A model generated the notes under the pieces. That model saw only the letters and a program-made list of their open reading frames with translations, did no database searches and was not told the DNA's origin. A program made the position numbers and the translations under genes. From Polyangia bacterium (GTDB taxonomy: Bacteria > Myxococcota_A > Polyangia > Haliangiales > JADYYK01), in NCBI GenBank assembly GCA_044229835.1, contig JBGASF010000046.1, forward strand, positions 1-49,689: 49,689 bases of DNA, given 5' to 3'. Positions 2,901-49,556 of the stretch are shown piece after piece (position 1 is the stretch's first letter; each line of letters starts with the position of its first letter).

Positions 2901-2948
2901 TCCAGGCTCCTTCTCAGTGCGCAGCAATATACCTGAACAACCTTCAAT

Positions 2949-3866: not shown

Positions 3867-3885
3867 CGTACCACCGCGCGCCGGG

Positions 3886-5880
<1,995 letters not shown>

Positions 5881-5990
5881 GACGCCGCGGTGTTTACCAC
5901 ATCATCCAAGCCGGGTCGCGCGATTGACATTGTGCGTCAAACTTGCAAGTGTTCCGCGCTCGTTGTCGCCGCTCCTTTTGTGAGGTCCCC

Positions 5991-9629: not shown

Positions 9630-12344
<2,715 letters not shown>

Positions 12345-15846: not shown

Positions 15847-16259
15847 GTGGCGAAGCTGATGCGCGTGTTCGACCGCTGCCGCACTCCGCGCGGCCATGCG
15901 CAAGACGCTCCGCCTCGCCGTGATCGACTGCGATCATGGACATCGTCGTGTCTGCACCACCACCACTGCCACGCAAGGCGCCCAGCAACACCCTGGCGGC
16001 GGCGGCCTGACAACTCGGACTCGTCTTCATCCACCCTGCCGTGCGGCGCCTGCTGCCCGGACCGGTGGAGCGCTGGCGAGCACCGCATTCACCCGCTCCG
16101 ATTCGCCTCGGGGTGGCAAACCTACGGGATCACGAGAGCCGATCGAAACAGTGCCGGCGAGAGAACCGCGCAACACCAGCACTCCCGAGGCGATGACATC
16201 ACCGGGAGGGAACTACGCGGGCCAACGGCGTTCCTCAGTCGGACAGAAACCCTCGCTCT

Positions 16260-19036: not shown

Positions 19037-19063
19037 GGAAGTCTGCATTCGCTCGCCCGGCGG

Positions 19064-20413
19064 TCAGCCCTGCAGCCGCGCCGCCAGCGCGAGCAGCCCC
19101 AGCCCGAACACCAGGATTGCCGCACCGCTGGCGACCACGGCTGCGCGCCGGGTGCGATCACCACCGTCACCGGTCAACCGGCTGCGCGACTCGGGCGTCG
19201 CCAGCAGCGCCGAGGCCAGCAGGTTGCCGCCGGCGAACAGGGCGCACAGCAGGATGGCCATCGGCGCGCGCGCCGCGAAGCCGGCCAGGGCCATGGCGCC
19301 CCACACCGCCGGCGAGCGCACCGCGGTCTTCAGCGCGTCGGCGCCCGCGGGCAGCGGCGCCGTCGCCGCGCGTCGCGCCAGCGCCAGGGTCACGATGCCG
19401 ATCGCCGCCATCACGCCCGCGGCCGCCAGCCCCAGCGCGCGCGGTGGCGACAGCTGCTCGAACAGGCGCGCCACCGGCAGCGCCGCGATCCCCACCACCA
19501 GGGTGCGCGCCAGGGCGTCCGCGATCGGGCTGACCTGCACCTTGTCACTGGTCAGCGCCGCCAGCCGTGCCGGCGCCACCGCGTCGAGCGCGCCGAGGAT
19601 CAGCGCGATCACCATCATCAGCAGCGCGCCCGCCGCGCCCAGGTCGGCGCGATGCGACAGCCCCAGCCACCACGGCACCGCGCCACCACCCGCACCACCC
19701 GCCCGCGTCGCGCCGCTGCCGGGTCGGCCCGCCGCCTGCTCGGGCGCGGCGTCGTCCAGCCAGGCCACCGTGACCGAGCGATCCTCGCCGCTCAGCTCGG
19801 CCGAGCCACGCCACAGGAACTGCGAGGTCACGCCCTGACCATGACGACCGATGTGCGAGGCCACCACGCGCAGCCCCGGCTCGGCCTGCACGAAGAGCTC
19901 GGTCTCGCCGGGCAGGTCGGGCTCGAAGGAGTGATCGACGTACAGCGAGTGGCTGCGCATGCGCCGGAGCGGCGCGCGCAGCACCAGGTCGACCGAGAAC
20001 GACCCCGCGCGCGTGACCGCCTGGCCCAGCCCCACCGAGGCCTCTGCCTTGTCGACCGGGACCACCACGCCGTCGATCTCGAGGCGCACCTTGGCCAGCA
20101 CCTCGGCCTGCGCGCGCCTGGCGAACGCGGTCTGCTCGGCGTCGTCGAGCACACCGTCGCGCGAGCTGTCCATCTGCGCGCGCGCCTCCAGCGCCGGGGC
20201 GTCCCCGAAGTACAGCGTGTACACGAAGCGCACGCTGTCCTGGCTGACGTCGAGCTTGAGGTAGCGGTTGTTCAAATTGGGATCGGGGCCGACATGCGCG
20301 GCCGCCGGCGTCGCCACCGCCAGCACGCCCAGCAGGACGACGACCCCGGCCACGGCCTGGCCCAGCGCCGCGGTGCTGCCCCTGCCTGGCCTCGAGCGCC
20401 CATGCGAGCCCAC
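19064..20413 (-). CDS. Membrane protein with signal peptide, periplasmic domain and a C-terminal multi-helix hydrophobic region.
   Basis: N-terminal signal AVAGVVVLLGVLAVATPAAAH, then a soluble domain, then several predicted TM helices. No confident family assignment. Confidence 0.5.
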   Translation of the reverse strand: MGSHGRSRPGRGSTAALGQAVAGVVVLLGVLAVATPAAAHVGPDPNLNNRYLKLDVSQDSVRFVYTLYFGDAPALEARAQMDSSRDGVLDDAEQTAFARRAQAEVLAKVRLEIDGVVVPVDKAEASVGLGQAVTRAGSFSVDLVLRAPLRRMRSHSLYVDHSFEPDLPGETELFVQAEPGLRVVASHIGRHGQGVTSQFLWRGSAELSGEDRSVTVAWLDDAAPEQAAGRPGSGATRAGGAGGGAVPWWLGLSHRADLGAAGALLMMVIALILGALDAVAPARLAALTSDKVQVSPIADALARTLVVGIAALPVARLFEQLSPPRALGLAAAGVMAAIGIVTLALARRAATAPLPAGADALKTAVRSPAVWGAMALAGFAARAPMAILLCALFAGGNLLASALLATPESRSRLTGDGGDRTRRAAVVASGAAILVFGLGLLALAARLQG

Positions 20414-34766: not shown

Positions 34767-34986
34767 ACCACGGTCACGGTCACGGTCACGGACCACGGAC
34801 CACGGACCACGACCCGCATCGCCGATCGCCGCTGCTGAGCCGTCCGCCCGCCGTCGCCGCCCGCCGCCCGCCGCCCGCCGTCGCCGTCCGCCGCCCGCCG
34901 CCCGCCGTTGCCGCCCGCCGCCCGCCGCCCGCCGGCGCCGCCCGCCGTCGCCGTGTGGCGTGACCGTGACCGTGACCGTGCGGTTG
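34767..34986. repeat. Composite intergenic repeat between convergent genes: (CGGTCA)x4 then (CGGACCA)x3, then ~16 copies of a CCGCCCG/CCGCCGT heptamer, then (GTGACC)x3. The outer arrays are inverted complements of each other.
   Basis: Direct reading. Left arm 34767-34794 is the reverse complement of right arm 34966-34986, so a ~22-bp stem could enclose a ~170-nt GC-rich loop. Confidence 0.85.
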
Positions 34987-34990
34987 GGGC

Positions 34991-36056
34991 TTACTTCGTG
35001 ACCTTGAAGGGGCGGGGGTGCTTGGTGGTGCCGGCTTCGGTGGTGAGGGTGAAGGTGGCGTCGGTGGTGTCGGGGGGGATCATGACGGTGACCGAGGTGT
35101 CGCCGGTGCGGGCCAGGACCTTGAGGGTGCGATCGCCGTAGGTGACCTTGGTGGCCTCGGTGAAGCCGGTGCCGGTCAGGGTCACGCGGGTGGTGGCGGG
35201 GCCCGAGGCGGGGGCGAAGTCGAGCAGCTTGGGCGGGGCGAGGACGACGAAGGGCGTCCCGAAGTCCACCACGGCCTTGCCGCGGCGGTGCTGGAACTTC
35301 GCGGTGACCGCGTTCTTCGGCAGCGTGGCCACGATGGACTTGGCGGTCAGGCGCTGGATCTCCAGCGGGCGGGTGCCCAGCCAGAGCTCGTCGCCGGCCT
35401 GGAAGTTGGCGCCGGTCAGCGTGACGGTGACGCCGGGCAGGCCGCGCGGCGGCTCGAAGCCGGTGATGGTCGCGGGCAGCACCAGCGTGAAGGGGCCGCT
35501 GGCGACGGCGCGCCCGCTGGGGTTCTCGATGCTGAACAGCTCGCCGGTGGCGGCGTCGGTGGGGACCTGGACCTTGAGCGTGGTCGGGGTGCGCTCGCGG
35601 ACGATCAGCGCGGTCTTGCCATAGCTGACCTTGTCGGTCGCGCTGGTCTCGGCCAGCGTGAGGGTGACCACGGTGCCGGGCGGGCCCGCCGAGGGCACGA
35701 AGGTCGACAGCACCGGGGCCGCGGGCAAGAGCTCGAAGGCGGGCTGCACCAGCAGCGGGCGGCTGCTGCCGCGCGTGATGGCCAGCTCGCCGCTGGCGGC
35801 GCCCCTGGGGATGGTCAGCTCGATCCGCGTCGGCTGGATGGTCGCGCTGACCGGCGCGCCGCCCACGCTGACGACGTCACCGGGCAGAAAGCCCGAGCCG
35901 TCGAGCACCACCTTGGTGCCAGGCGGCCCCTTCAGCGGGGCGAACCCGGTGACCCGCGCCGGCTCGACGATGGAGACCCAGCGCCCCGTCCACGGCCATG
36001 CCGCAGCCACACTCGAGGTCGCCAGCAGGACCCCGAGAACCGCCAGCCTTTTCATC
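34991..36056 (-). CDS. Secreted protein with tandem IPT/TIG (Ig-like) domains.
   Basis: Signal peptide MKRLAVLGVLLATSSVAAAW. Repeated ...TGF.P..G.PGT.V.L.G.GF... Ig-like units. GGAGG RBS. The track ORF's extended N-terminus overlaps a tRNA and is rejected. Confidence 0.7.
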
Positions 36057-36074
36057 GCAAACCTCCGCAAGGGG

Positions 36075-36146
36075 AGGTGCCGCCCGGATTCGAACCGGGG
36101 AATAGAGGCTTTGCAGGCCTCCGCCTTACCACTTGGCCACGGCACC
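36075..36146 (-). tRNA. tRNA-Cys (anticodon GCA).
   Basis: 72 nt. 7-bp acceptor stem GGTGCCG/CGGCACC, D-loop AGTGGTAA, anticodon loop CUGCAAA, T-arm GGTTCGAATCC, discriminator U. CCA not encoded. Confidence 0.85.
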
Positions 36147-36260
36147 GTGGTCAGAAACGAGGCGCAGTATATGCGGGGAGGGCAGGGTGTCAACGCCGCG
36201 ATGCAACTGAGTTATCGTAGCGACCAGGCCAGCGCAGGCCACGACAGGACCCGACAGGAC

Positions 36261-37364
36261 ATGGACTCTCCCATCCAGGATGCCGAGGTGGTGCGTCGCG
36301 GCGCCGAGCTGGCCGAGCTGGGCCGGCAGCTGGCGCGTCTCGGCCTGAGCCCCGAAAAGGTGCTGACCTTCACCGGGGCGCTGTCACTGGGTGACCTGTC
36401 GCGCGCCATCGACGACACCGCCCGGCGCGCCAGCAAGCTGCCCCGACCGCGCGGGCTGGGGGCGCTGATCGCGCTGCTGTGCTGTGGCCTGGCGCAGTCG
36501 GCGGCCGAGCTGGAGGCCGTGCTGGGGGCGCCCGCGCTGGCGCTCCTGGAGGCGGTCGGCGTGCTGGAGCGCGCGGGCGCCGACCTGGTGCCGCGGCTGG
36601 CGCTGGTGCCGGCGCAGCGCCGCCTGGGGGCGCGCGCCGGGCGCGCGGTCGGGCCGGTGGTGCTGGTCGCCCATGATCTGCACCGGCTGCGCTTCGAGTC
36701 GCTGGCGGTGATGGCGCCCGATCTGTCGTCGGAGCTGATGCTGCGCGCCAGCATCACGCGTGCGGGCAGCTGGCTCGACGTCGGCACCGGCAGCGGGGTG
36801 GTCGCGCTGGCGGCGGCGCTGCGCGGCACGCCGCGGGTGATCGCGGCCGATCTCAACCCGCGGGCGGGCGCCTTCGTGCGCCTGGGTGCGGCGCTGAACG
36901 GGGTCGCCGGCGCGGTGACCGCGCTGGAGTCCGACCTCATGCAGGCGGTGCCGCCGGGGCGGCATGACGTCATCACCTTCAACTCGCCGCTGCTGTTCGG
37001 CATGGGCGACCTGCTGTGGCGCAACACCGCGGAGGGGCCGGCGCTGCTGCGCCGCTTCTTCGATGACCTCGCGCCCCGGCTGGCCGGTGAGGCGCTGATC
37101 CACGCCCAGCTGCCGCACGACGAGCGCGTGCTGCCCGCGCGGGTGCCGATGACCGATCCCGCGCGCTTCCACGGCCTCAGCCTGCGCTACGAGCTGGGCG
37201 AGGAGTGGGCCCAGGGCCTGCTCTGGCTGACGCCCGCCGGCGGCGGCCGCGCCATCTGGGTCGAGGAGCTGCACGAGCCCACGCCCGAGCAGCTGTTCCT
37301 CGATCGCGAGCAGCTCGAGATCGCGCTGGCGCGCAACGAAATGCGCTCGCCCGTGGCCACGTAG
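36261..37364 (+). CDS. Class I SAM-dependent methyltransferase (MTS/PrmC-like small-domain type).
   Basis: Motif I LDVGTGSGVVALAAA. Post-motif DLNPRA reminiscent of N-methyltransferases. Real start MDSPIQ... (ATG 36261) within track ORF 35631..37364. Confidence 0.6.
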   Translation: MDSPIQDAEVVRRGAELAELGRQLARLGLSPEKVLTFTGALSLGDLSRAIDDTARRASKLPRPRGLGALIALLCCGLAQSAAELEAVLGAPALALLEAVGVLERAGADLVPRLALVPAQRRLGARAGRAVGPVVLVAHDLHRLRFESLAVMAPDLSSELMLRASITRAGSWLDVGTGSGVVALAAALRGTPRVIAADLNPRAGAFVRLGAALNGVAGAVTALESDLMQAVPPGRHDVITFNSPLLFGMGDLLWRNTAEGPALLRRFFDDLAPRLAGEALIHAQLPHDERVLPARVPMTDPARFHGLSLRYELGEEWAQGLLWLTPAGGGRAIWVEELHEPTPEQLFLDREQLEIALARNEMRSPVAT

Positions 37365-37382
37365 TTGATGTAGGAGAGGGCG

Positions 37383-38564
37383 ATGGCTGCGATTGTGGTG
37401 CAGAAGTATGGCGGGTCGTCGGTCGCCGACGTCGAGAAGCTACGCCGGGTTGCGCGCCGGGTGGTCGACACCGCGCAGACCGGCAAGCGGGTCTGCGTGG
37501 TGGTCTCGGCGATGGGCGACACCACCGACGAGCTGCTCGCGCTGGCGCGCAAGGTGTCGCCGGCGCCGCAGCGGCGCGAGCTCGACATGCTGCTGTCGGC
37601 CGGTGAGCGCATCTCGATGTCGCTGCTCTCGATGGCCATCCACGAGCTGGGCGCCGAGGCCATCTCGTTCACCGGATCGCAGAGCGGCATCATCACCAAC
37701 GATCGCCACTCGGGCGCGCGCGTCCTCGAGGTGCGGCCCTACCGCATCCAGGACGAGCTCGAGCGCGGCAAGATCGTCATCGTCGCCGGCTTCCAGGGCG
37801 TGTCGTACAAGAAGGAGATCACCACGCTGGGGCGCGGCGGGTCGGACACCACCGCGGTCGCGCTGGCGGCGGCGCTGGGCGCCGAGTTCTGCGAGATCTG
37901 CTCCGACGTCGATGGCGTGTACAGCGCCGACCCGCGCGTGGTCGACGCGCCGCGCCTGCTGGCCGCGGTCAGCTACGACGAGATGCAGGAGCTGGCGGCG
38001 CTGGGCGCCAAGGTGCTGAACCCGCAGTGCGTGGAGTTCGCGCGCTCGGCGGGGATCGCGATCTTCGCCCGCGCCACCGCGGGCGGCGGGGCCGGCACGG
38101 AGATCGGCGCGGCGCACAGCGGGCGGCGCGTGGTCGGCGTCACCGGCACCGGCGACCTGGTGCGGGTGCGCTTCGCGGGGCGCGGCGGGGCGGCGCGGGC
38201 GCGCACGCTGGCGCACGCCCTGGCCGAGGACGGCGTGGTCACGCTGTGTGGCGGCGCGGCCGAGGACGGCGGGGCCTGGGTGTTCGAGACCGACGACCTG
38301 CCCGACTGGGCCAAGGTCAAGGCGCGCATCGTGGCCATCGGCGGCAGCGACGTGGTGATCGAGGAGGGGCTGGGCGCGGCCAGCGTGGTGGGGCAGGGCA
38401 TCGGCGGCGATCCCGCGGCGCTGGAGAAGGCGCTGACGGTGGCGCACGAGCTCGGCGTCGAGACGCTGGGGGTGTACACCTCGCCGCTGCGCATCACGCT
38501 GCTGGCGCCGCCGGCGCGCATCAAGGAGCTGGTGCGCGCGCTGCACGCCGCGCTGTGCGCGTGA
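37383..38564 (+). CDS. lysC: Aspartate kinase.
   Basis: N-terminus [19 protein letters not shown], and AAK-family fold signatures with C-terminal ACT-like region. AGGAGAG RBS. Confidence 0.9.
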
Positions 38565-38626
38565 CGGTGGCCGGCCGTGCGCGCGGCGGCTGGTCCGGCC
38601 GCGCGCCGGCGTAGTACCTTGGCGCC

Positions 38627-39424
38627 ATGTTCGGTCTGCGCGGTGGTGCCCGGCCTGCCAATGACGCCCGTGGGGTGAGCCCGGGCGAGCGGCCCCGCTG
38701 GGGGCGCGCCGGCGGCCGGCCGCTGGTGATCGGCCACCGCGGCGCCTCGGCGCGGGCGCCCGAGAACACGCTCGCGGCCTTCGCGCTGGCGCGGCGCGAG
38801 GGCGCCGATGGCGTCGAGCTCGACGTCATGCGCTGCGGCTCGGGCGAGCTGGTGGTGTTCCACGACTGGGACCTCGAGCGGCTGGGCCAGCGCCCGGGCA
38901 AGGTGGCCCGGCTGCCCCTCGAGGCGCTGCGCGAGGTCGACCTCGGCGGCGGCGAGCGCATCCCCCTGCTATCCGAGGTGCTGGAGCAGCTCGGGCCCGA
39001 CATGCTGGTCAACGTCGAGCTCAAGGTGCGCGGCTCCGGCGTAGGCGGCGAGCTGGCGGCGCCGGTCGTCGGCACGCTGCGCCGGCACGCCATGGGCGCG
39101 CGGGCGCTGGTGTCGAGCTTCCACCCGCTGGAGCTGGCCCGCGTGCGCGCGCTGGCGCCCGACGTGCTGACCGGCTACCTGTTCCACGCCGAGCAGGCGC
39201 TGCCGCTGCGCCGCGCCTGGCCGGCGTGCTGGCTGCGCCCGGCGGCGATGCACCCCGATCGCCAGCTGGTGTCGGAGCCCGCGGTGGCGCGCTGGCACCG
39301 CCGCGGCATGGCGGTCAACGTGTGGACGGTCGACGAACCAGGGCCACTGCGGGCGTTCGCGGCGATGGGCGTGGATGGTTTGATCACGAATGATCCAGCA
39401 GGCGCGCGGGCGGCGCTGGCCTGA
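38627..39424 (+). CDS. Glycerophosphodiester phosphodiesterase family protein.
   Basis: GDPD motifs [19 protein letters not shown] and GADGVELDV. Confidence 0.8.
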
Positions 39425-39438
39425 GCACGAGCACGAGC
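39421..39438. repeat. Short (GAGCAC)x2.7 microsatellite between convergent genes.
   Basis: Direct reading. Confidence 0.7.
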
Positions 39439-39445
39439 CGGTGCG

Positions 39446-41878
39446 CTAGTAGTCGCCGCTGCCGCCGCCCTGCGACAGGCCGCGCAGCAGGTTCTGCGCC
39501 GCGACGTCGACCGGGCCCAGCAGGTCGACCACGTCCTCGACGTGCTTGCCGAACTCGGCGGACTGGTTGTACATGCGCTTGATGCGCTTGAACTCGGTCT
39601 CGCCGACGCCGAAGCCGGCGTAGTCGCGGCCGTCGCCGCGCCAGCCGATGGTGCCGTTGAAGAACTCGAGGATCTCGCGCGGGGTGCAGTCGGTGCGCGA
39701 GCTCATCGCGGCGCGCGCCAGCGCGACCACCTCGCGGACCGACGAGGTCAGGAGCATCACGGTGGCGTAGCGCTCGCCCGGCTTCTTGCCCGCGGGCGCC
39801 GGCGCCAGCCCGGCGCCCTTGAGCTTGGCGTCGTCGCGCGCGACGCGATCGAGCTGCTCGCCGAGCTTGAGGTACTCCTCGCGGCGCTGCGCCACCTGCT
39901 TCTGCAGCGCGTAGGCCTTGGTGGCGTAGGTCTCGACCGAGACGCGGTACTTGGTGGCCTGCTCCTTGAGCTTGAGCGCCCCGCTGACCTGCGAGATCTG
40001 CGCGCAGTGGGTCTCGACCGCGTAGATCTTGGCGCGCAGCGAGTTGACCTCGCTGGCGAAGTAGAAGTCGGCGATGGCGTTCATGGCGCCGCCGATGCTG
40101 GTCGGCAGCGTGAAGCCGCCGTCCTGCTCGTACGAGGTGTTGCGCCCGTCCTCGCCCGGCTTCTTGGAGACGTCGAGATCGGTCTTGGTCTGGACGTTGC
40201 GCACGATGATGGCGCCGTCCTTGTTGGTGGTGGTGTAGGTCGGGTTCCAGCGCGCCGGCTTGCCCGCCATGATGGCGCGCTTGTTGCGCCCGGCGTTGAT
40301 GGTGGCGCCCATCATGTTGACCTTCTCGGTGGCGTTGGCGATGGCCGCGGGGGCGCCGTTGACCACCGCGGCGGTGGTGTCGATGGCGCTGCCGACCTGC
40401 TTGATGAAGGCCTTGGTCTTCTCGATCTCGCCCATGCGCTCGCGCGCGCCGTCGGCCTCGTGGTTCTTCTTCTCCTTGTCGAGCTCGAGCATGTGCTGCT
40501 GGAAGCCGAGGAAGTCGGCCTGCATGGCCTTGTGCGCCATGGTGGCCTCCATGGCGGAGGTGGTCACGTCGTGGCCCTGCGAGGGCTCGGCCAGGTGCTC
40601 GGAGGCGTCGCGCGAGCCGGCGTTGTAGAGATCGCGGATGCGCTCGCCGACCGCGCCCGCGCCGGTGGCGGCGACCCCGGCGCCGGAGTCGCTGGCGTGG
40701 CCGAGCTCGCGGGTCAGGCCGGCGACCATGGCCGACACGTTGTGGCCGATGCCGAGCGCGTTCATCTGGCCCTGCAGGCGCGTCATCGAGCCCCACACCG
40801 CGTTGGCCTGCGGCACCCAGGCGTTGAACCCGGTGAACTGCTGCTCCTCGGTGGTGCGGTCGCTGATGAGCTGGCGCAGCTTGCCCTCGAGGATCGGGAT
40901 GGCCTCGCCGGCCTGCTGCTTCTGCCAGTACATGTGCGAGCCGAACATGCCCTCGCCGCTGATCTTCTTGTTCTTCTCGATCTGGTTCTGCAGGTAGGTG
41001 CGGCCCTTCTCGATGGCCGAGAAGTCGGGCGCGACCTGGTGCAGCTGCAGCTCGTCGGGCGTCATGTGCAGGATCGACAGCTGCTTGCCCTCGTCGGCCA
41101 GCTCGACGGCCTCGCTGGCCGACTGCTTGAGCAGGGCGCCGCTGTAGCCGGCCTCGCCGGCGTGGATCTCCTGGTTGCCGTGGATCGGCATGGCCTCGGT
41201 GGGGCCGCCGATGCCGGGATCGGCGCCGACGTTGGCGTTGACGTTCTCCTTGCGCATCATGCGCGCCACGCCGCTGGCGCCGGCCGACACCTGCGCGGGC
41301 GCGCCCAGCACCATGCGGTCGGCGGCGGCGTCGGCCTCGAGCTCGAAGGCGTCACCGGGGGTCGACACCTGGGCCTTGCCGGCGGGCACCGGGGCGGCGC
41401 CGCGCTGCTGCACGGTGTGGGCGACCTCGTGCGCGAGCAGGGCCTCTCCGCCGCGCGAGCCCGGCGTGTACTCGCCGGCGCCGAAGTGGATGTCCTGGCC
41501 GAACGCGAAGGCACGCGCGCCCAGGGCGTCGGCGGCGCCGGCCGACTCCGCGCCGGTGTGCACGCGCACGCCGCCGAGGTCGGTCCCCAGCGAGCCCTCG
41601 AACTTGCTGCGCAGGCCGTCGGGCAGCTGCACGCCGCCGCCGGTGGGCACGCTGTCGACCGCGCCGGCGCTGGTGTCGGCGCCGGGGGCGGAGGCGGCAG
41701 CGCCGTCCTTGGCCTGGCGCTGTACGATCCCGTCGGCGAGGGTGCGCCGTCCCGGGGGCGCGCCGTTGCTGTTCTCGGGCGACTGCTTGGACTCGACCTC
41801 GTGGTTTGCCGACTGCTGATAGCGCATGGCCGCTGCTAGAGCAGCCGGCGTGCCCACAGGGGCCCACGCGGTTTCCAC
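39446..41878 (-). CDS. Large DUF4157 (zincin-like, HExxH) domain protein with about 600 aa of uncharacterised C-terminal region; candidate polymorphic-toxin/eCIS-type effector.
   Basis: Region LPDGLRSKFEGSLGTDLGGVRVHTGAESAGAADALGARAFAFGQDIHFGAGEYTPGSRGGEALLAHEVAHTVQQRG matches the DUF4157 consensus including HExxH. Start GTG 41878 or ATG 41827. Confidence 0.65.
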   Translation of the reverse strand: METAWAPVGTPAALAAAMRYQQSANHEVESKQSPENSNGAPPGRRTLADGIVQRQAKDGAAASAPGADTSAGAVDSVPTGGGVQLPDGLRSKFEGSLGTDLGGVRVHTGAESAGAADALGARAFAFGQDIHFGAGEYTPGSRGGEALLAHEVAHTVQQRGAAPVPAGKAQVSTPGDAFELEADAAADRMVLGAPAQVSAGASGVARMMRKENVNANVGADPGIGGPTEAMPIHGNQEIHAGEAGYSGALLKQSASEAVELADEGKQLSILHMTPDELQLHQVAPDFSAIEKGRTYLQNQIEKNKKISGEGMFGSHMYWQKQQAGEAIPILEGKLRQLISDRTTEEQQFTGFNAWVPQANAVWGSMTRLQGQMNALGIGHNVSAMVAGLTRELGHASDSGAGVAATGAGAVGERIRDLYNAGSRDASEHLAEPSQGHDVTTSAMEATMAHKAMQADFLGFQQHMLELDKEKKNHEADGARERMGEIEKTKAFIKQVGSAIDTTAAVVNGAPAAIANATEKVNMMGATINAGRNKRAIMAGKPARWNPTYTTTNKDGAIIVRNVQTKTDLDVSKKPGEDGRNTSYEQDGGFTLPTSIGGAMNAIADFYFASEVNSLRAKIYAVETHCAQISQVSGALKLKEQATKYRVSVETYATKAYALQKQVAQRREEYLKLGEQLDRVARDDAKLKGAGLAPAPAGKKPGERYATVMLLTSSVREVVALARAAMSSRTDCTPREILEFFNGTIGWRGDGRDYAGFGVGETEFKRIKRMYNQSAEFGKHVEDVVDLLGPVDVAAQNLLRGLSQGGGSGDY

Positions 41879-42977: not shown

Positions 42978-43667
42978 ATGACGACGACGACGACCCAGAA
43001 GCGCATCCTCATCGCCACCACCAGCCATACCCAGCTCGGCGACACCGGCAAGCCCACCGGGGCCTACCTGGCCGAGGTCGCGCACCCCCACGCGGCCTTC
43101 GTGCGCGCCGGCCATGGCGTGGAGTTCGCCAGCGTACGGGGTGGCCAGATCCCGCTCGACGGCGTGGCCGACGCCGACGCCGGAAGCCGCGCCTTCCTGG
43201 AGGCCCACGGCGCCGAGCTGGCCAGCAGCCAGGCCGCGGCGAGCGTCGACCCCGCGCGCTATGACGCCATCTTCTTCGCCGGTGGCCACGGCACCATGTG
43301 GGATCTGCCCGAGGACGCGGCGTTCCAGCGCGTCGCGGCGGCGATCTACCAGCGCGGCGGCGTGGTCGCCGCGGTGTGCCACGGCCCGGCCGCGCTGGTG
43401 AACCTGCGCCTCGCGGATGGTCGCTACCTGGTCGATGGCAAGCGGGTCAGTGCCTTCACCAACGAGGAGGAGCGCGCGGTGAAGCTCGAGGGCGTGGTGC
43501 CGTTCCTGCTCGCCGATGCCCTGGTCGCGCGCGGCGCCCAGCACGTGCCGGCGCCCAGCTGGAAGTCGCACGTGGTGGTCAGCGAGCGGCTGGTGACGGG
43601 GCAGAACCCGGCGTCGGCGACGGGGGTGGCGGAGGCGGTGGTCAAGGTGCTGGCGGGTGAAGCCTGA
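42978..43667 (+). CDS. DJ-1/PfpI (class I glutamine amidotransferase-like) family protein.
   Basis: Nucleophile elbow AAVCHGPAAL. Overall ThiJ/HchA-like pattern. Confidence 0.75.
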   Translation: MTTTTTQKRILIATTSHTQLGDTGKPTGAYLAEVAHPHAAFVRAGHGVEFASVRGGQIPLDGVADADAGSRAFLEAHGAELASSQAAASVDPARYDAIFFAGGHGTMWDLPEDAAFQRVAAAIYQRGGVVAAVCHGPAALVNLRLADGRYLVDGKRVSAFTNEEERAVKLEGVVPFLLADALVARGAQHVPAPSWKSHVVVSERLVTGQNPASATGVAEAVVKVLAGEA

Positions 43668-43668
43668 G

Positions 43669-43716
<48 letters not shown>

Positions 43717-43735
43717 GCGCCAGGGCGGCCGGGGG

Positions 43736-45628
43736 TCAGCGTGGACGCAGGGTCAGGATCTCGTGCGGTTCATCGAAGCCCTTCAGGCGCCTGGCGAAGC
43801 TGTGGCTGGGCTCGGCCTCGGCGGCGGCGACGCGGGCGACCTCGGGGCGGGTCGAGAGCTCGGTCAGCAGCGCGACCTCGTTGGCGCCGGCCTGGGCCTG
43901 CAGGCGGGCGGCCAGGTTGACGGTGGTGCCGAAGAAGTCGAGGCGGCCGTTGGCGCGCACGGCGAGGCAGGCGCCCTCGTGGATGCCGACGCGCACGGCG
44001 AGGTCGGGCACGCCGCGCGCCGCGGCCGACCTGCCGACCTCGCGCGCCATCTCGAGGCCGGCCGACAGCGCCCGCGCCGGCGAGGTGAAGGTGGCCATCA
44101 CGGCGTCGCCCATGGTCTTGACCACCGCGCCCTGGTGCGCCGCGATGACCGCCGAGACGTCGCGGAAGTGGGCCTGCACCAGGGCGAAGGCGCGGGCGTC
44201 GCCGATGCGACGGTACAGCGCCGTGGTGCCGGTCAGGTCCGAGAACAGCACCGCCAGGTGGCCCACCGTCAGGTCCAGCCCGACCGCCGGGGCCTCGGCC
44301 GAGAACAGGTCGATGAACTCCGGGAAGGTCGCCAGCAGGGTGCCGGGCACCGCGTCGGAGGGGAAGTCGGCGCGCTCGAACAGCAGGGTCAGCGGCACCG
44401 AGGTGCTGTTGCTGCACGCCAGGGTGGTGCTGCCGTCCTGGCTGTCCTCGCTGGCGCGCGCCAGCAGCAGCCCGGCGTCGGTGACCTCGACCTCCACCGC
44501 GCGCGGCGCCGGGTGCGCGGGCAGCAGGGCACGGCGCTGGCCCGCGCGCACCAGCAGCCCCCCGGGCGGCAGCGCCAGCTGCAGCGCGCGGCGCTCCCCG
44601 GCCTCGAGCCGGACGCCGGCGAACAGCTGGGGGCGATGCCAGGGCGAGGCCGCGCAGAAGACGCTGGGCCTGACCGGGCGCAGCGCGGCGTTGACGCTGA
44701 AGGTGGCCTCGACGTTGGCGGCCAGGTCCAGCTCGAAGGCGATGTCGCAGTCGGCGCAGTGCGCGCGCCGGGCCAGCTGGTCGAGGCTGGTCGCGACCTC
44801 GGCCCCGACCCGGCACACCGGGCAGTCGAGCTGCCAGCGCAGGTCGACCAGGCCGGCGCGGGTGGCGTACAGGAAGCCGCGCACGACGTCGCGCTCGTCG
44901 GCGCTCCAGGCCCGCGCCAGCTCCAGCGGACGCAGCTGGGTCAGCTCGTCGTCCGCGCGCGTGCGCAGCAGCTCGACGATGCGGTCGCGCACCTCGGGCC
45001 GCACCGGCGCCTCGGCGAAGCGGCCAGCGCAGAACGCGAAGGGCTCCTCGGCCAGCGCCGAGGACGGGCCGTTCCACGCCGGGTCGGCCCCGCTGGCCCA
45101 CAGGAAGCGCCGCGCCTGGCGCAGCGCGGGCTCGTCCCGGTCGGCCGTGGCCGCCAGCGCCGCCGCGCCGCCGCGCTCGAGCACGCCGGCCAGCGCCTCG
45201 ACGTGGCGCACCAGCGCCTGCCCGGTGCGCTCGATCATGGCCGCCGCCAGCTCGGCGGGCAGCATCGGTGCGCGCTCGATGTACGAGCGCACCTCCAGCC
45301 GGGTGCCGCCGGCCTCCGCCGCCACCGTGTAGGCGTAGCCGCCGCGCGCCACCGGCCCGGTCAGGAAGCGGCGCTCGGCGGTCAGGCGCTGGCCCTCGAC
45401 GCCGTCGCCGATCTCCAGCCAGGACACCTCCATGCCCATCACGCGGGTGCGCCCGACCTGCGCCCGCGTGCGCGGATCGGCCGGGTCGATGAGCTCGTAG
45501 CTGTAGCTCGACTGCTTGAACCCGATGGCGCGATCCCAGCGATTGGAGTCGGCCATCAGCGCCCACACCAGCCCCGGGGGCCCCGGCAGCAGGCGCGACA
45601 CCTGGGTCTCGTAGAGGAGCTGGCTCAC
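43736..45628 (-). CDS. Class III adenylate/guanylate cyclase with N-terminal SRPBCC-like ligand-binding domain and a CxxC...CxxC zinc-ribbon-like element.
   Basis: C-terminal catalytic domain (LAVLFSDLTGTTALYRR..., VKTMGDAVMATF, RVGIHEGACL...FGTTVNLAARLQ). N-terminus YETQVSRLLPGPPGLVWALMADSNRWDRAIGF looks like a Bet v1/START strand. CPVCRVG...CADCD in the middle. The upstream 183 aa of the track ORF is junk. GTG start overlaps upstream TGA. Confidence 0.75.
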   Translation of the reverse strand: MSQLLYETQVSRLLPGPPGLVWALMADSNRWDRAIGFKQSSYSYELIDPADPRTRAQVGRTRVMGMEVSWLEIGDGVEGQRLTAERRFLTGPVARGGYAYTVAAEAGGTRLEVRSYIERAPMLPAELAAAMIERTGQALVRHVEALAGVLERGGAAALAATADRDEPALRQARRFLWASGADPAWNGPSSALAEEPFAFCAGRFAEAPVRPEVRDRIVELLRTRADDELTQLRPLELARAWSADERDVVRGFLYATRAGLVDLRWQLDCPVCRVGAEVATSLDQLARRAHCADCDIAFELDLAANVEATFSVNAALRPVRPSVFCAASPWHRPQLFAGVRLEAGERRALQLALPPGGLLVRAGQRRALLPAHPAPRAVEVEVTDAGLLLARASEDSQDGSTTLACSNSTSVPLTLLFERADFPSDAVPGTLLATFPEFIDLFSAEAPAVGLDLTVGHLAVLFSDLTGTTALYRRIGDARAFALVQAHFRDVSAVIAAHQGAVVKTMGDAVMATFTSPARALSAGLEMAREVGRSAAARGVPDLAVRVGIHEGACLAVRANGRLDFFGTTVNLAARLQAQAGANEVALLTELSTRPEVARVAAAEAEPSHSFARRLKGFDEPHEILTLRPR

Positions 45629-46170
45629 GGCGCGCCCAGGCCCGGCGGCGTCGCGGCGTCGGGCCGGCTGATGGCGGCGTCGCACACCTTCATGGTGCAG
45701 TCGGCGCTCTGGTTGGCGCCCACGCAGCGGCAGGTGTTGCAGTCGACCGGGTAGGTCTCGCCGGCCTCGTAGTACCTGCCGGCCTGCGCACAGCCACACA
45801 GGGCGCCGCGCGCGGTGGTCCCGCCGGCGCCGACCGTGACCTCGACCGGGACGCCCAGGCTGCCGATCACCAGCCCCTCGCGCGCCTCCTCGGCGCACAG
45901 CTCGATGCGCACGCGCGCGCCCAGGGCGTCGCCGACGGCGCTGATGGTCGCGACGCCGCGCTGCGCGGCCAGCCGCTCGTGGTGCGCGGCGACCACGTCC
46001 TGCACGTGGCGCAGCGCGTTCAGGCCGGCGGCCACGGCGGCGTCCATGGTGGGCGGGCCGGAGGCCGAGGGGGCCGGCGTCTGCGCGCGACCCGACCGGC
46101 GCCGGCAGGCTGGCACGGCGAGCTCGACCAGCAGCAGAATCGCGAGCACAAACGGGGCTCTCGCGCGCAC
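45625..46170 (-). CDS. Secreted protein with signal peptide and a C-terminal 8-Cys module, translationally coupled to the cyclase.
   Basis: Signal peptide MRARAPFVLAILLLVELAVPA. C-terminal ...CGC...CNTCRC...CTMKVC. GTGA overlap with the downstream gene start. Occupies a different frame from the junk N-extension of the cyclase ORF. Confidence 0.5.
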   Translation of the reverse strand: MRARAPFVLAILLLVELAVPACRRRSGRAQTPAPSASGPPTMDAAVAAGLNALRHVQDVVAAHHERLAAQRGVATISAVGDALGARVRIELCAEEAREGLVIGSLGVPVEVTVGAGGTTARGALCGCAQAGRYYEAGETYPVDCNTCRCVGANQSADCTMKVCDAAISRPDAATPPGLGAP

Positions 46171-46292
46171 GTCCGCACGTTAGCACGGCCTCGGTTGACG
46201 CCCGCTCAGGAAGCGGTCAACCTAATCGCCCCGTTTGGCTGGACGCGCATCGCTAGAACAGCCCCGGGACGATAGCGCTGGGAGGGGATCTG

Positions 46293-48854
46293 ATGGACGA
46301 GCGGACGCAGAAGCGGGACCTGGTGCTCGCACCGAGCGAGTACGCCTATATGCAGGACGTCACCAAGGGCATCATCAAGACGTACACCGGCCCGACGGTG
46401 ATCAACCCGACGGCGCAGGAGCGCCCGGTGCTCTTCAACACGCAGAAGAAGCGCTTCGAGGGCTGCACCCTCGAGCAGGCCGTGCAGCAGGCGGCCATCG
46501 CGCCCGAGGGCTACTACCTGGTGGTGAAGAACCCGTCGGTCAAGGGTGATCACCCGGTCGCCGGCGGCGTCTACCCGTCGCCCGACCTGCACGTCGGCCG
46601 CAAGATCAACATCACCGGGCCGTGCGACTTCGCGCTGTGGCCGGGCCAGATCGTCAAGCTGGTCCAGGGCCACCACCTGCGCTCGAACCAGTACCTGCTG
46701 GTGCGCGTGTACAACGAGGAGGAGGCGCGCGGCAACTGGCGCAAGGCCGTGGTCAAGCCGGCCGCCGCCGAGGCCGGCGCGCCCGAGACCGTGGGCGCGC
46801 CGCCGCCGACCCTGCGCGTGCCCAGCGATCTGACCGTGGGCAAGCTGCTCATCATCAAGGGCACCGATGTGTCGTTCTACATCCCGCCCACCGGCGTCGG
46901 CGTGGTGCCCGACGAGGGCGGCCAGGTCTACGTGCGCGACGCCCTCACGCTGGAGCGCCTGGAGTACTGCATCCTGGTCGACCAGAACGGCAAGAAGCGC
47001 TACGAGCGCGGCCCCCAGGTCGTGTTCCCGGAGCCCACCGAGACCTTCATCACCAAGGACGGTCATCGCAAGTTCCGCGCCCTCGAGCTGAACGAGATCC
47101 AGGGCCTGCACATCAAGGTCATCGCGCCCTACGAGGAGGCCGGGCGGCGCTACAAGGAGGGCGACGAGATCTTCATCACCGGGAAGGAGACCGCGATCTA
47201 CTTCCCGCGCGAGGAGCACTCGCTGGTGCGCTACGACGGCAAGGACAAGCACTTCGCCGTCGCGGTGCCCGCGGGCGAGGCGCGCTACGTCATGAACCGC
47301 AAGAGCGGTGAGATCCGCATGACGCTGGGGCCGGCCATGCTGCTGCCCAACCCGACCGACGAGGTCATCGTGCGCCGTGTCCTGACCGACAAGGAGTGCA
47401 TGACCTGGTACCCGGGCAACGACGAGGCGCTGGCCTACAACCGCAGCCTGCGCCAGGTCGCCATGCACGCGCCGACCACGCGCGCCGGCGTGGTCTCGGA
47501 GGGCGACTACGAGCGCAGCCAGCGCCGCGGCGGCCAGCAGAAGCAGGGCGCGATGGCGGCCTCGGTGGCGATGGAGGGCAGCTCGGTCAGCAAGGACAGC
47601 GCCGCCATGATGGGCGACGTGCTGGAGCGCGGCTCCAACTTCACCCAGCCGCGCACGCTGGTGTTCAACACCAAGTACGAGGGCGTGCCCTCGGTCAACG
47701 TCTACGTCGGCTACGCCGTGATGGTGATCGACAAGAAGGGCCACCGCCGTGTCGAGCAGGGGCCCAAGAACATCCTGCTGCAGTACGACGAGACGCTGGA
47801 GGTCATCGAGCTGTCGACCGGCAAGCCGAAGTCGACCGATCGGCTGATCCTGACGGTGTTTCTGCGCGTGCTCAACAACAAGGTCGGCGACATCTGCGAG
47901 GTCGAGACCTCGGATCACGTGCGCGTGCGCCTGACCTACTCGCTGCGGGTCAACTTCGAGGGCGATCCGGACCGCTGGTTCGAGGTCGAGAACTACGTCA
48001 AGTTCCTGTGCGATCACGTGCGCTCGGTGCTCAAGGGCGCGGTCAAGCGCCACTCCATCGAGGCCTTCTACGCCGGGTCGGTCGACCTCTTGCGCGACAT
48101 CATCCTGGGCAAGAGCAGCGACAAGGGCGAGCGCGCGGGCATGAAGTTCCCCGAGAACGGCATGCACGTGACCGACGTCGAGGTGCTGGCGGTCGAGATC
48201 GACGACGCGCGGATCGCGGCGCTGCTGGCCGAGGCGCAGCACGAGGCGGTGGAGTCGAACATCACGCTGCTGCGCGCCAACCGCGGCCTGGAGGTCACCC
48301 GGCGCAAGGAGGAGATCGCGCGCCAGGAGGCCGAGGCCAAGACCGCGACGCTCAAGCGCAAGGCCGAGCTGGAGGTCGAGGAGACCGCCAGCAAGCTGCG
48401 CACGGTGCTGGCCGGGATCGGGGCCGAGATCGCGCAGCATGACGAGCGCAAGAAGGCGGCCGAGGCCAAGAACGCCGGCGTCGACGTCGAGCACAAGGCG
48501 CAGCTCGAGCGCGATCGCTCGGTGGCGGTGTTCAAGCAGGAGGTCCAGAAGAGCGAGCAGGCCATCCGCCTGGCCGCGCTGGAGGCCGACGCGCAGAACG
48601 CCATCAAGCGCTTCCAGGCCGCGCAGGCGGGCTTCTCGGAGGCGCTGCTGGCGGCGTCGAACAACGAGCTGCTGGTCAAGGTGGCCGACGCCATGAGCGT
48701 GCAGCACTTCATCGGCGGCAAGACGCTGACCGACGTGGTCGACCGCATCTTCGCGGGCACCCCGCTGGCGGGGCTGATGGAGCGGGTCAAGGACCGGGTC
48801 ACCAGCAATGGTGGCGCGCGGCTGTCGGCCCCGCCGGCGACGCCGAGCAAGTGA
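46293..48854 (+). CDS. Major vault protein (MVP) homologue: N-terminal MVP repeat domains, shoulder (SPFH/band-7-like) domain and C-terminal cap-helix coiled coil.
   Basis: Collinear similarity to eukaryotic MVP. N-terminus LAPSEYAYMQDV...GP...ERPVLF...YYLVVKNP compared with human IPPYHYIHVLD...GP...ERVLF...HYCTVANPV. Shoulder region LSTGKPK...ETSDHVRVRLTYSLRVNFEG...FLCDHVRSVLKGAV compared with LSAGRPK...[20 protein letters not shown]...ACKAIASRVRGAV. Long C-terminal helix ending ...GKTLTDVVDRIFAGTPLAG. Host-like GC. Confidence 0.8.
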   Translation: MDERTQKRDLVLAPSEYAYMQDVTKGIIKTYTGPTVINPTAQERPVLFNTQKKRFEGCTLEQAVQQAAIAPEGYYLVVKNPSVKGDHPVAGGVYPSPDLHVGRKINITGPCDFALWPGQIVKLVQGHHLRSNQYLLVRVYNEEEARGNWRKAVVKPAAAEAGAPETVGAPPPTLRVPSDLTVGKLLIIKGTDVSFYIPPTGVGVVPDEGGQVYVRDALTLERLEYCILVDQNGKKRYERGPQVVFPEPTETFITKDGHRKFRALELNEIQGLHIKVIAPYEEAGRRYKEGDEIFITGKETAIYFPREEHSLVRYDGKDKHFAVAVPAGEARYVMNRKSGEIRMTLGPAMLLPNPTDEVIVRRVLTDKECMTWYPGNDEALAYNRSLRQVAMHAPTTRAGVVSEGDYERSQRRGGQQKQGAMAASVAMEGSSVSKDSAAMMGDVLERGSNFTQPRTLVFNTKYEGVPSVNVYVGYAVMVIDKKGHRRVEQGPKNILLQYDETLEVIELSTGKPKSTDRLILTVFLRVLNNKVGDICEVETSDHVRVRLTYSLRVNFEGDPDRWFEVENYVKFLCDHVRSVLKGAVKRHSIEAFYAGSVDLLRDIILGKSSDKGERAGMKFPENGMHVTDVEVLAVEIDDARIAALLAEAQHEAVESNITLLRANRGLEVTRRKEEIARQEAEAKTATLKRKAELEVEETASKLRTVLAGIGAEIAQHDERKKAAEAKNAGVDVEHKAQLERDRSVAVFKQEVQKSEQAIRLAALEADAQNAIKRFQAAQAGFSEALLAASNNELLVKVADAMSVQHFIGGKTLTDVVDRIFAGTPLAGLMERVKDRVTSNGGARLSAPPATPSK

Positions 48855-48877
48855 CGCGGCGCTGAGCGAGGCGAGCG

Positions 48878-49445
48878 GTGAGCACAGCAGGAGGCCTTGC
48901 GATCTCGGAGCGCGGCACGCTGATCATCCCGAGCGGGCGTGCCGCGCTGCCGTTCCTGAAGGACGAGTGGAGCCATGGCGGGTTGACGCTGTGGCCCAAG
49001 GCCGAGCACCACTTCACGGTGTTCGGCTTCTCCATCGGCAAGCACCTCGGCAAGGCGCGCGCGCTGCCCGGCTTCATCGACTGGGTCAACGCGCGCATCG
49101 CCGAGCACGACTGGAGCTGGCGCCTGGGCCAGCAGTGCTTTCACCTGCGCCAGCCCGAGCCGCGCGCGCTGGACACCGTGGTGGTGCGCATCGAGGCGGG
49201 GATCGCGGCGTTCTTCGCCAAGGTGGAGGCCGAGGCGCGCACGCGGGGCGCCAGGCCCGAGCTGCTGGAGGCGCTGGCCGCGCCGCCGCCGCCGCACGTG
49301 ACGCTGTACACGAGTGATCGCGAGGGCAAGCAGGGCATCGGGCTGAACCGGGTGGCCGACCTGGAGGCGGCGATCGCGAGGGGCAGGGCGGGGGATGCCA
49401 GCGGGCTGTGTGCGGTCGAGGTGCCGGCGGCGGCGGTGCTGGGGT

Positions 49446-49447
<2 letters not shown>
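48878..49447 (+). CDS. Putative 2H phosphoesterase-superfamily protein (LigT/cyclic phosphodiesterase-like), immediately downstream of the MVP homologue.
   Basis: Two H-x-T/S-x motifs in the expected contexts: HFTVFGFSIG and HVTLYTS. About 190 aa. 23-nt gap after the MVP stop. Confidence 0.45.

Positions 49448-49556
<109 letters not shown>

Follow-up and report, generated by a model that had tools for sequence, protein, structure and literature searches.

On contig JBGASF010000046.1 of a Polyangia bacterium (assembly GCA_044229835.1), the start codon of a class III nucleotide cyclase gene overlaps the stop codon of a small gene for a cysteine-rich protein, and the small gene faces a bacterial major vault protein (MVP) homologue across a short divergent spacer. 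Does this arrangement mean that the genes work together? An original prediction, made from the letters of the DNA, had taken the cyclase, the secreted cysteine-rich protein and the MVP operon to be one co-evolved signalling system, gated by a lipophilic ligand and controlled by a palindrome. We analysed the whole stretch of 49,689 nucleotides (hereafter the window) and found that the locus consists of two genuine but unrelated genes. We consider it likely that a rearrangement, recent and specific to this lineage, brought these two independent genes into a head-to-tail order.

The junction between the cyclase and the small gene

The features on which the argument rests are as follows.

43670-43716, plus strand: (GAGCAC)7.8 microsatellite between the stop codons of a DJ-1 gene and the cyclase
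43736-45628, minus strand: cyclase coding sequence, 630 aa, GTG start, TGA stop
45625-45628, minus strand: GTGA start/stop overlap, the cyclase GTG at 45628 lying over the TGA of the small gene
45628-45681, minus strand: lineage-specific 18-aa tail of the small protein (DAAISRPDAATPPGLGAP) in place of the ancestral 'PP*', with the similarity break at ~45675-45681
45625-46170, minus strand: small gene, 181 aa, GTG start, for a predicted exported pacifastin-like protein
46171-46292, no strand: divergent spacer from the small gene to MVP, 122 bp
46194-46221, within the spacer: GTTGAC-N16-GTCAAC palindrome

The GC content of the window is ~71%, so that long open reading frames (ORFs) are found in all frames, and a single minus-strand frame is open from 46186 to 43736 (816 aa). 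Third-position GC (GC3) on the minus strand switches frame at ~45628. In their own frames, the small gene (45625-46170) has a GC3 of 0.96 and the cyclase (43739-45628) one of 0.98, and upstream of 45628 the 816-aa ORF has a GC3 of 0.60, indicating that this frame is noncoding there. A cyclase start at the GTG of 45628 fits where 57 homologues have their N-termini. The gene pair and its GTG/TGA overlap were found exactly where the original prediction had placed them, and all the sequence features that it listed exist at the positions given.

We then compared the locus with those of two relatives. The small gene of L001 (GCA_963853155.1) points away from MVP and a 191-aa ORF, and downstream of it are RHS/teneurin-like genes on the opposite strand. 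L053 is the metagenome-assembled genome (MAG) SJ525, whose MVP is 99% identical; it matches the window at 35200-39419 and 45675-49453 only, and where the window has the intervening 6.2 kb, L053 has 1.2 kb of different DNA. No cyclase was found on the downstream side of the small gene in L001 or L053. Besides the cyclase, the 6.2-kb segment of the window encodes three proteins.

39446-41878, minus strand: eCIS_core protein (PF13699, 98.5 bits), 810 aa, in the segment absent from L053
41968-42864: LysR regulator, beside the eCIS_core protein
42978-43667: DJ-1/PfpI protein, beside the LysR regulator

The sequence around the break is informative at the level of codons. In both relatives the small gene ends with '...CTMK(V/A)C-P-P-stop', directly followed by (GTGCTC)n, which has 7 copies in L053 and a 2-copy remnant in L001. 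The window diverges right after the codon of Cys163 and continues for 18 new codons to the TGA within the GTGAGC start of the cyclase, and its blastn homology to L001 and L053 stops at 45675. The tail of the small protein is junction DNA.

The same boundary is seen from the side of the cyclase. Its closest homologue (P0003 in L002, 80% identity) lies downstream of a cyclic nucleotide monophosphate (cNMP)-binding gene and a HEAT/CSD gene, and nucleotide homology between the window and L002 extends exactly from start to stop codon, at 45628-43735. The L002 cyclase also begins with GTGAGC, overlapping the stop of another upstream gene. Because the same overlap is formed there with a different gene, the GTGA overlap is intrinsic to the 5′ end of the cyclase and is not evidence of a partnership. 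Across six cyclase-homologue loci (L002, L003 and L075-L078) the neighbours were unrelated, with no conserved partner and no homologue of the small gene, and the cyclase often overlaps or abuts its upstream gene. Moreover, no database homologue is more than 80% identical to the window cyclase, whereas MVP is 98-99% identical to that of the relatives, and this difference favours gain or relocation of the cyclase in the window lineage.

Next, we considered the spacer. The predicted 122-bp divergent region shared with MVP is present and is kept in L001 and L053, with 89-94% identity among the three genomes; because this divergence is about that of MVP at synonymous sites (proportion of synonymous differences, pS, ~0.09), the conservation is uninformative on function. 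The predicted palindrome is also present, and differs among the three genomes by one substitution, in its own spacer, but it is not above chance: a 6-bp inverted repeat occurred in 51% and a 7-bp one in 18% of spacer shuffles, and a 7-bp one was also present in 31% of the real 122-nt tiles of the window. Folded as an RNA hairpin, the palindrome gave modest z values of -2.2 (minus strand) and -1.6 (plus strand). A scan of 43500-46400 identified no sigma-70 consensus promoter and no intrinsic terminator.

The idea of one co-evolved system thus starts from features that are real, namely the GTGA overlap and the 122-bp spacer, the retention of spacer and palindrome in two relatives, and the SRPBCC domain of the cyclase described below. 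However, the two closest relatives have no cyclase at this position and the homologues in six loci have unrelated neighbours; the small protein is predicted to be exported while the cyclase appears cytoplasmic and soluble; and neither the palindrome (at chance level), nor the spacer (at neutral divergence), nor the overlap (a property of the cyclase coding sequence) speaks for joint function. We regard such a system as improbable. The narrower proposal that cyclase and small protein form a coupled pair was likewise not upheld by these contexts, and with one product predicted to stay in the cytoplasm and the other to leave it, the two are unlikely to be directly linked in function. The cyclase and the small gene became adjacent only recently, and probably do not form a pair dedicated to one function. 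The locus shows that neither a start/stop overlap nor a shared spacer is evidence of functional coupling.

Two points weigh against a rearrangement that brought the cyclase to this site. The event could have been an insertion here or a deletion in both relatives, and the assemblies of the relatives are perhaps incomplete, so a cyclase orthologue may lie elsewhere in them.

The cyclase and its DUF5939 region

The cyclase had been described as a fusion of an SRPBCC domain, a CxxC...CxxC element and a cyclase domain. Pfam domains, four invariant cysteines and a structure model agree with this description, and both Guanylate_cyc and Polyketide_cyc2 scored above their Pfam cut-offs.

45185-45604, minus strand: SRPBCC/Polyketide_cyc2 domain (residues 9-148), Pfam 29.3 bits, cut-off 27.4
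44309-45169, minus strand: DUF5939 region (~residues 154-440), modelled as a helical/winged-helix-like part, a two-hairpin Cys4 zinc ribbon and an eight-strand beta-sandwich
44747-44824, minus strand: CPxC (C269, P270, C272) and CxxC (C291, C294) knuckles, invariant in homologues
43865-44260, minus strand: class III cyclase catalytic domain (residues 457-588), Guanylate_cyc PF00211, 62.4 bits, cut-off 21.9

A word-indexed search of 5.8 billion proteins returned at least 98 cyclase homologues at E<=1e-10, all carrying DUF5939 together with Guanylate_cyc. They are mostly 600-670 aa long, with a few shorter or partial, are 31-80% identical to the window protein, and are named in their sources 'adenylate/guanylate cyclase domain-containing protein', 'class 3 adenylate cyclase' or 'DUF5939 domain-containing protein'. 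When scanned individually against Pfam, 58 of 58 sampled members had both domains; the DUF5939 match (PF19363) of the window protein covers residues 210-319 with 62 bits. PF10604 (Polyketide_cyc2) was matched at E<=0.01 by 49 of the 58 (best 1.4e-10), one of which also matched PF03364, and this recurrence makes the SRPBCC assignment solid. A literature search found no paper on DUF5939, and SRPBCC with adenylate cyclase gave one irrelevant match. The cyclase adds one more protein to the SRPBCC-DUF5939-cyclase family, which is widespread, catalogued and uncharacterised, and its architecture is not new.

Six residues of the catalytic domain, D464, K504, D508, D564, N571 and R575, are invariant in 58/58 homologues. 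The best solved relative is Ma1120, an adenylate cyclase of Mycobacterium avium (E 3.4e-21). From the alignment to Ma1120 and general knowledge of class III enzymes, we take D464 and D508 to be the metal-binding Asp pair, K504 and D564 the adenine-selecting Lys/Asp pair, and N571 and R575 the transition-state Asn/Arg pair. The cyclase is predicted from these residues to be active and specific for ATP, so that of the proposed 'adenylate/guanylate cyclase' the cyclase assignment stood, while the residues are of the adenylate and not the guanylate type. Its hydropathy peaks at 1.31 (Kyte-Doolittle) and it has no transmembrane segment; with no hydrophobic segment above that value, the protein is taken to be soluble and cytoplasmic.

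This catalytic domain also gave weak matches to PADLOC models of PycC, the pyrimidine cyclase of the Pycsar antiphage system (best E 4.7e-12, 43.8 bits, catalytic domain only). Such matches are expected because the PycC models are themselves class III cyclase homologues. Against an antiphage role, the Lys/Asp pair is of the adenine type, no cNMP-binding effector is adjacent, and SRPBCC plus DUF5939 is a sensor-cyclase architecture found in housekeeping contexts. We find it scarcely credible that the gene is a Pycsar cyclase, and rejected it as one on the adenine-type residues and the generic, catalytic-only nature of the PADLOC matches.

The region between the SRPBCC and catalytic domains was modelled with AlphaFold2 (residues 150-452, alignment of 89 sequences), which gave a confident model (mean predicted local distance difference test, pLDDT, 92.2; predicted template modelling score, pTM, 0.88). 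Helices are followed by two beta-hairpins with the CPxC and CxxC motifs at their turns (strands 112-119/126-130 and 139-142/147-150 of the modelled fragment) and then by an eight-strand beta-sandwich. C269-P270-x-C272 and C291-x-x-C294 are invariant in 58/58 and in 89/89 aligned homologues, and C325 is likewise among the invariant positions of both alignments; position 334 is Gln in the window protein and His in 56/58 family members. A zinc ribbon is supported by this invariance and the predicted topology, and the four cysteines may be expected to bind zinc. A Foldseek search of the model against the PDB returned nothing at E<=0.001, with weak cupin/jelly-roll hints for the sandwich, and sequence search found no solved relative for the N-terminal 450 residues. 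In this model, DUF5939, which at least 98 cyclases in the database carry, is made up of a winged helix, a zinc ribbon with four invariant cysteines and a beta-sandwich. This offers a hypothesis for an uncharacterised sensor family, in which synthesis of cyclic AMP (cAMP) would be regulated by a metal or redox state and by a ligand.

In L002, positions 2406-6441 form an apparent operon in the order cNMP_binding, HEAT/CSD and, last, cyclase, with 4-nt overlaps, which thus encodes a cAMP producer together with a candidate cAMP receptor. Among the scanned genes of the window we found no cNMP-binding protein.

The small protein and its pacifastin-like domain

The small gene encodes three recognisable parts.

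46105-46170, minus strand: signal peptide ending in the lipobox-like Cys22 (LAVPAC), hydrophobic segment 1.97
45826-46053, minus strand: N-domain (~residues 40-115), with helix, two strands, helix and strand, and the invariant C92
45682-45798, minus strand: pacifastin-like domain C125...C163 (C-G-C-x16-C-N-T-C-R-C-x8-C-T-M-K-V-C), matched in Pfam

The N-terminus has two arginines and then a hydrophobic stretch up to Cys22, which is invariant in 13/13 family members and always closes an N-terminal hydrophobic stretch. With the pattern [LVI][ASTVI][GAS]C as a guide, the lipoboxes of relatives read LTAGC, LAGGC, LLGC, LVAC and similar, and that of the window AVPAC. These features suggest that the protein is exported by the Sec pathway and probably lipid-anchored, and the original call of 'secreted' fits a real cysteine-rich product with a hydrophobic export signal. 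Cysteines are found at positions 22, 92, 125, 127, 144, 147, 149, 158 and 163. The description of a compact eight-cysteine module was roughly right: seven lie within 39 residues and the eighth is the distant C92, in addition to the cysteine of the signal peptide.

The window protein, P0001, P0002 (L001) and L053 have all nine cysteines in common, and the proteins of the three species are 74-91% identical. The ratio of non-synonymous to synonymous substitution (dN/dS) is 0.26 for L001 against L053, and 0.48-0.60 when the window is compared with each of these two. The small gene is coding and evolves under purifying selection, which is somewhat weaker on the branch of the window. The risk named at the outset, that the small ORF is a shadow ORF, was checked and rejected on GC3 in its own frame, cysteine conservation and dN/dS.

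A broader version of that doubt takes the ORF to be non-functional, either as a shadow or as the decaying remnant of an OmpA lipoprotein. It would explain the missing OmpA domain, the raised dN/dS of the window branch and the count of just two close homologues in the word-indexed search of 5.8 billion proteins. But GC3 marks its own frame, nine cysteines and a pacifastin-like motif are conserved at the identity given above, dN/dS between L001 and L053 is low, and the truncated form is common to three genomes, which makes a non-functional ORF very improbable.

In the published signature of pacifastins, Cys1-X9-12-Cys2-Asn-X-Cys3-X-Cys4-X2-3-Gly-X3-6-Cys5-Thr-X3-Cys6, the reactive site lies between the last two cysteines (PMC2689174). 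The window protein matches it from Cys2 to Cys6 in cysteines, Asn and Thr (C144-N-T-C147-R-C149-V-G-x6-C158-T-MKV-C163), with Gly one residue after Cys4 instead of 2-3. Pacifastin_I (PF05375) was matched at residues 136-171 with 30.1 bits (cut-off 27.9), and by the L053 copy with 26.5, just under the cut-off. By sequence, each of the ten best matches in the PDB is a pacifastin inhibitor, PMP-C/LCMI-II and SGPI-2 among them; in the top match, PMP-C/LCMI-II (E 4.3e-4), EAGETYPVDCNTCRCVGANQSADCTMKVC is aligned to EPGKTFKDKCNTCRCGADGKSAACTLKAC. The resemblance to arthropod pacifastins noted earlier is therefore stronger than the label 'weak' implies, since the score exceeds the Pfam cut-off and pacifastins make up the ten best PDB matches. 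On the alignment to PMP-C and the reactive-site rule of PMC2689174, P1-P1' would be Met160-Lys161, and the P1-equivalent position is Leu or Met across most family members. A predicted Met-Lys bond points to a chymotrypsin- or subtilisin-type target.

An exhaustive HMMER search of 1.84 billion representatives gave 46 matches to the small protein, among them eleven that cover nearly the whole profile in a single stretch. These eleven proteins, of 221-313 aa, have a lipobox, a Pro/Ala-rich linker, the N-domain with the equivalent of Cys92, the pacifastin-like domain and, at the C-terminus, an OmpA-like domain. In the alignment of 13 family members, 11 have a lipobox at the start and a match to PF00691 (OmpA) at the end, and 12 match PF05375 at E<=1 (best 1e-9). 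On this alignment, the small protein belongs, in truncated form, to a family of bacterial lipoproteins whose usual C-terminal part is an OmpA domain. The distant full-length relatives P0117 and P0118 are not adjacent to MVP. Pacifastin-like domains have been reported from Sorangium, Chondromyces, Polyangium and candidate phyla radiation (CPR) bacteria (PMC13388995, Sci Rep 2026); the myxobacterial examples there are proteins of 204-238 aa with 1-3 domains detected by structure only, an 'ancestral' class with an N-terminal hairpin is embedded in matrix proteins, and neither OmpA nor vault proteins are mentioned.

Several observations sit uneasily with a lipid-anchored, classical inhibitor. Between Cys1 and Cys2 there are 16 residues (counted from C127) or 18 (from C125) against the classical 9-12, the lipobox has an atypical Pro at -2, and the dN/dS of 0.48-0.60 for the window copy suggests relaxed constraint. 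The AlphaFold2 model had a pLDDT of ~30 over the pacifastin-like part, which is unreliable and does not verify the disulfide topology. Weaker matches to VWF and VWC models leave room for a non-inhibitory, VWC-like role.

In the corresponding alternative, peptidoglycan-associated lipoproteins use the cysteine-rich domain as a VWC/TIL-like module for structure or adhesion, and the pacifastin match reflects no more than a shared small-disulfide scaffold. VWF and VWC matches in 8/13 members (best 1.4e-5 and 9e-5, respectively), PDB matches to VWF and mucin at E 0.04-0.14, the long Cys1-Cys2 spacing and the matrix-embedded 'ancestral' class of PMC13388995 are in line with it. However, the best model, and the one matched most consistently, is Pacifastin_I (12/13, with the window protein above cut-off), the CNxCxC...CT-x3-C core is exact, and the P1-equivalent is Leu or Met in most of the family. 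We consider a structural module rather unlikely, though it deserves to be kept in mind, and prefer a pacifastin-like inhibitor.

The small protein is among the clearest pacifastin-like domains at the sequence level in a bacterium, and its OmpA-anchored family is undescribed in the paper found on bacterial pacifastins (PMC13388995). If it does inhibit proteases, it could serve periplasmic self-protection or regulation, and it would bear on the origin of the 'arthropod' pacifastin family. The search matches also included a group of multi-repeat proteins (P0101-P0105, P0110 and P0111) with 4-19 tandem pacifastin-like repeats, plus the 57-aa fragment P0132 (...GCVYAGVEYAAGETYKADCNTCHCVGNNLAMCTLMAC...), which by eye is very similar to the window domain over ~38 aligned residues; these proteins could bear on horizontal transfer.

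The vault protein block, a proposed explanation and known systems

On the other side of the spacer, the small gene faces a conserved unit.

46293-48854, plus strand: bacterial major vault protein homologue, 853 aa, Pfam MVP_shoulder 93.9 bits and Vault_3 36.9 bits
48878-49447, plus strand: 189-aa ORF travelling with MVP, without a Pfam, NCBIfam, PADLOC or PDB match
49449-49543, plus strand: (ACGAGC)15.8 array of the (GAGCAC)n unit, 2 nt past the stop of the 189-aa ORF, at the right end of the block shared with L001 and L053

A conserved 3.8-kb block (45675-49453) runs from the small gene through the spacer and MVP to the 189-aa ORF; it has 94% nucleotide identity to L001 and L053, and its homology to them ends on the right at 49453/49464. 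Among 185,579 species genomes we found 66 MVP loci, mostly in metagenome-assembled genomes of Myxococcota. When these 66 loci were searched for a homologue of the small gene or a pacifastin motif, only L053 had one, and L001 was separately found to have one too. An ORF of ~190 aa lies directly beside MVP in L001 (6708-7283), L053 (8587-9162), L004-L007, L010 and L043; this ORF, at at least eight loci, is a candidate vault-associated partner. MVP homologues have been reported from Myxococcales, Cytophagales and Oscillatoriales, without discussion of their gene neighbourhood (bioRxiv 10.1101/872010), and a literature search found no paper on the major vault protein in myxobacteria.

Many MVP genes of Kofleriaceae/Haliangiales MAGs share an upstream motif, TGGAC-N6-TCTTGAA or TGGnCGCG-N4-GTGCA, the latter with a sigma-54-like GG-N10-GC spacing. 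It was seen, within the 140 nt upstream of MVP, in L026, L030, L036, L037, L039, L040, L042, L048 and others, including L049, L057, L058, L062, L063 and L069, with repeated TGCTCC/GGAGCA elements upstream of it. The window carries a variant at 46240-46259 (TGGACGCGCATCGCTAGAAC) whose spacing is off by one. The motif may be a conserved promoter with enhancer sites.

The window has five (GAGCAC)n arrays (1-74, 10653-10734, 39423-39434, 43670-43716 and 49449-49543) of 2-16 near-perfect copies, all intergenic, in one orientation and mostly right after stop codons. Others are found in L053 (5349-5390), L001 (~6692-6703 and ~10478-10490) and L003 (3925-4002). The similarity of the window to two relatives ends exactly at such arrays, and the copies after the 189-aa ORF vary between genomes (15.8, 2.5 and 0). 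In L053 the equivalent of the 43670-43716 array directly follows the small gene, and a unit of ~24 nt (CACGAACCTGGGTCGGGTCCGGTC), with ~5 irregularly spaced repeats at ~5150-5349, adjoins that array. These patterns suggest that the arrays are rearrangement hot spots or cassette boundaries. A more specific idea is that same-orientation arrays are substrates for the shuffling of gene blocks, which set the cyclase coding sequence between the small gene and the array of that gene with single-nucleotide precision; we hold this to be doubtful. If it were true, cAMP synthesis would have been wired to the promoter region shared with MVP, and the arrays would be cassette boundaries that create operon fusions.

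Elsewhere in the window, an FHA-GGDEF diguanylate cyclase at 2949-3866 (minus strand), 40 kb off, is a second nucleotide-second-messenger enzyme. The stretch 16000-19100 has ~62% GC against ~71% and two ORFs of ~465 aa, one with a PQQ_2/BamB-like beta-propeller; these 3 kb may be foreign DNA. Immediately upstream of the stretch that is syntenic with L053, tandem CCGCCCG and related units (period 7/20/27, ~15 heptamer copies) occupy 34844-34953, with short CACGGT, CACGGAC and CGTGAC repeats on their flanks (34769-34980). An Rfam scan found tRNA-Cys at 36075-36146 and nothing else.

Based on the above results, we propose the following explanation for two independent genes joined by a rearrangement. 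The cyclase would act as a homodimer that makes cAMP, with its activity set by the N-terminal modules (SRPBCC pocket, winged-helix-like part, Cys4 ribbon and beta-sandwich). The SRPBCC domain may bind a small molecule, and the zinc ribbon might be structural or, by analogy with PerR, redox-sensitive. The pacifastin-like loop of the small protein would be a canonical, tight-binding serine-protease inhibitor in the cell envelope. Myxobacteria secrete many proteases, which makes an envelope inhibitor plausible. In the window the cyclase coding sequence now stands between the small gene and its microsatellite, beside a block bounded by (GAGCAC)n arrays in this clade, and the small ORF, which would have lost its own stop, reads on to the TGA in the GTGA of the cyclase. 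Since the small ORF runs into the cyclase start, co-transcription from the 122-bp spacer and translational coupling of both genes are probable, as a by-product of the rearrangement. The link is probably new wiring and not an evolved partnership.

Each part of the locus has a known counterpart. The MVP homologue is one of those described in bacteria (bioRxiv 10.1101/872010), with the link to a pacifastin-like lipoprotein confined to three close relatives. The cyclase shares its architecture with other DUF5939 plus Guanylate_cyc proteins, which are ~610-660 aa long, and differs solely in genomic context. Its metal, substrate and transition-state residues have equivalents in Ma1120 and other class III adenylate cyclases, and Ma1120 aligns at residues 433-588 only, that is, over the catalytic domain. 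The DUF5939 region resembles Fur/PerR and TFE-alpha in the order of a winged helix and a Cys4 zinc site.

The small protein stands between several known groups. Compared with Pal-like, peptidoglycan-associated lipoproteins (OmpA_C), the clade of the window, L001 and L053 lacks OmpA and ends 0-18 residues past the last cysteine. Its core, CNTCRC-x8-CT(L/M)K(A/V)C, is nearly identical to that of PMP-C. However, arthropod pacifastins (PMP-C/LCMI-II, SGPI-2/SGCI) come from processed multi-domain precursors, whereas here one domain ends a bacterial lipoprotein, with a longer segment before Cys2 (16-18 against 9-12) and two extra conserved cysteines (C92, and C125 or C127). It shares the scaffold, and an origin in large GC-rich myxobacterial genomes, with the bacterial pacifastins of PMC13388995. 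Unlike those examples, it is detectable by sequence and has one domain behind a conserved N-domain, with OmpA following in the wider family.

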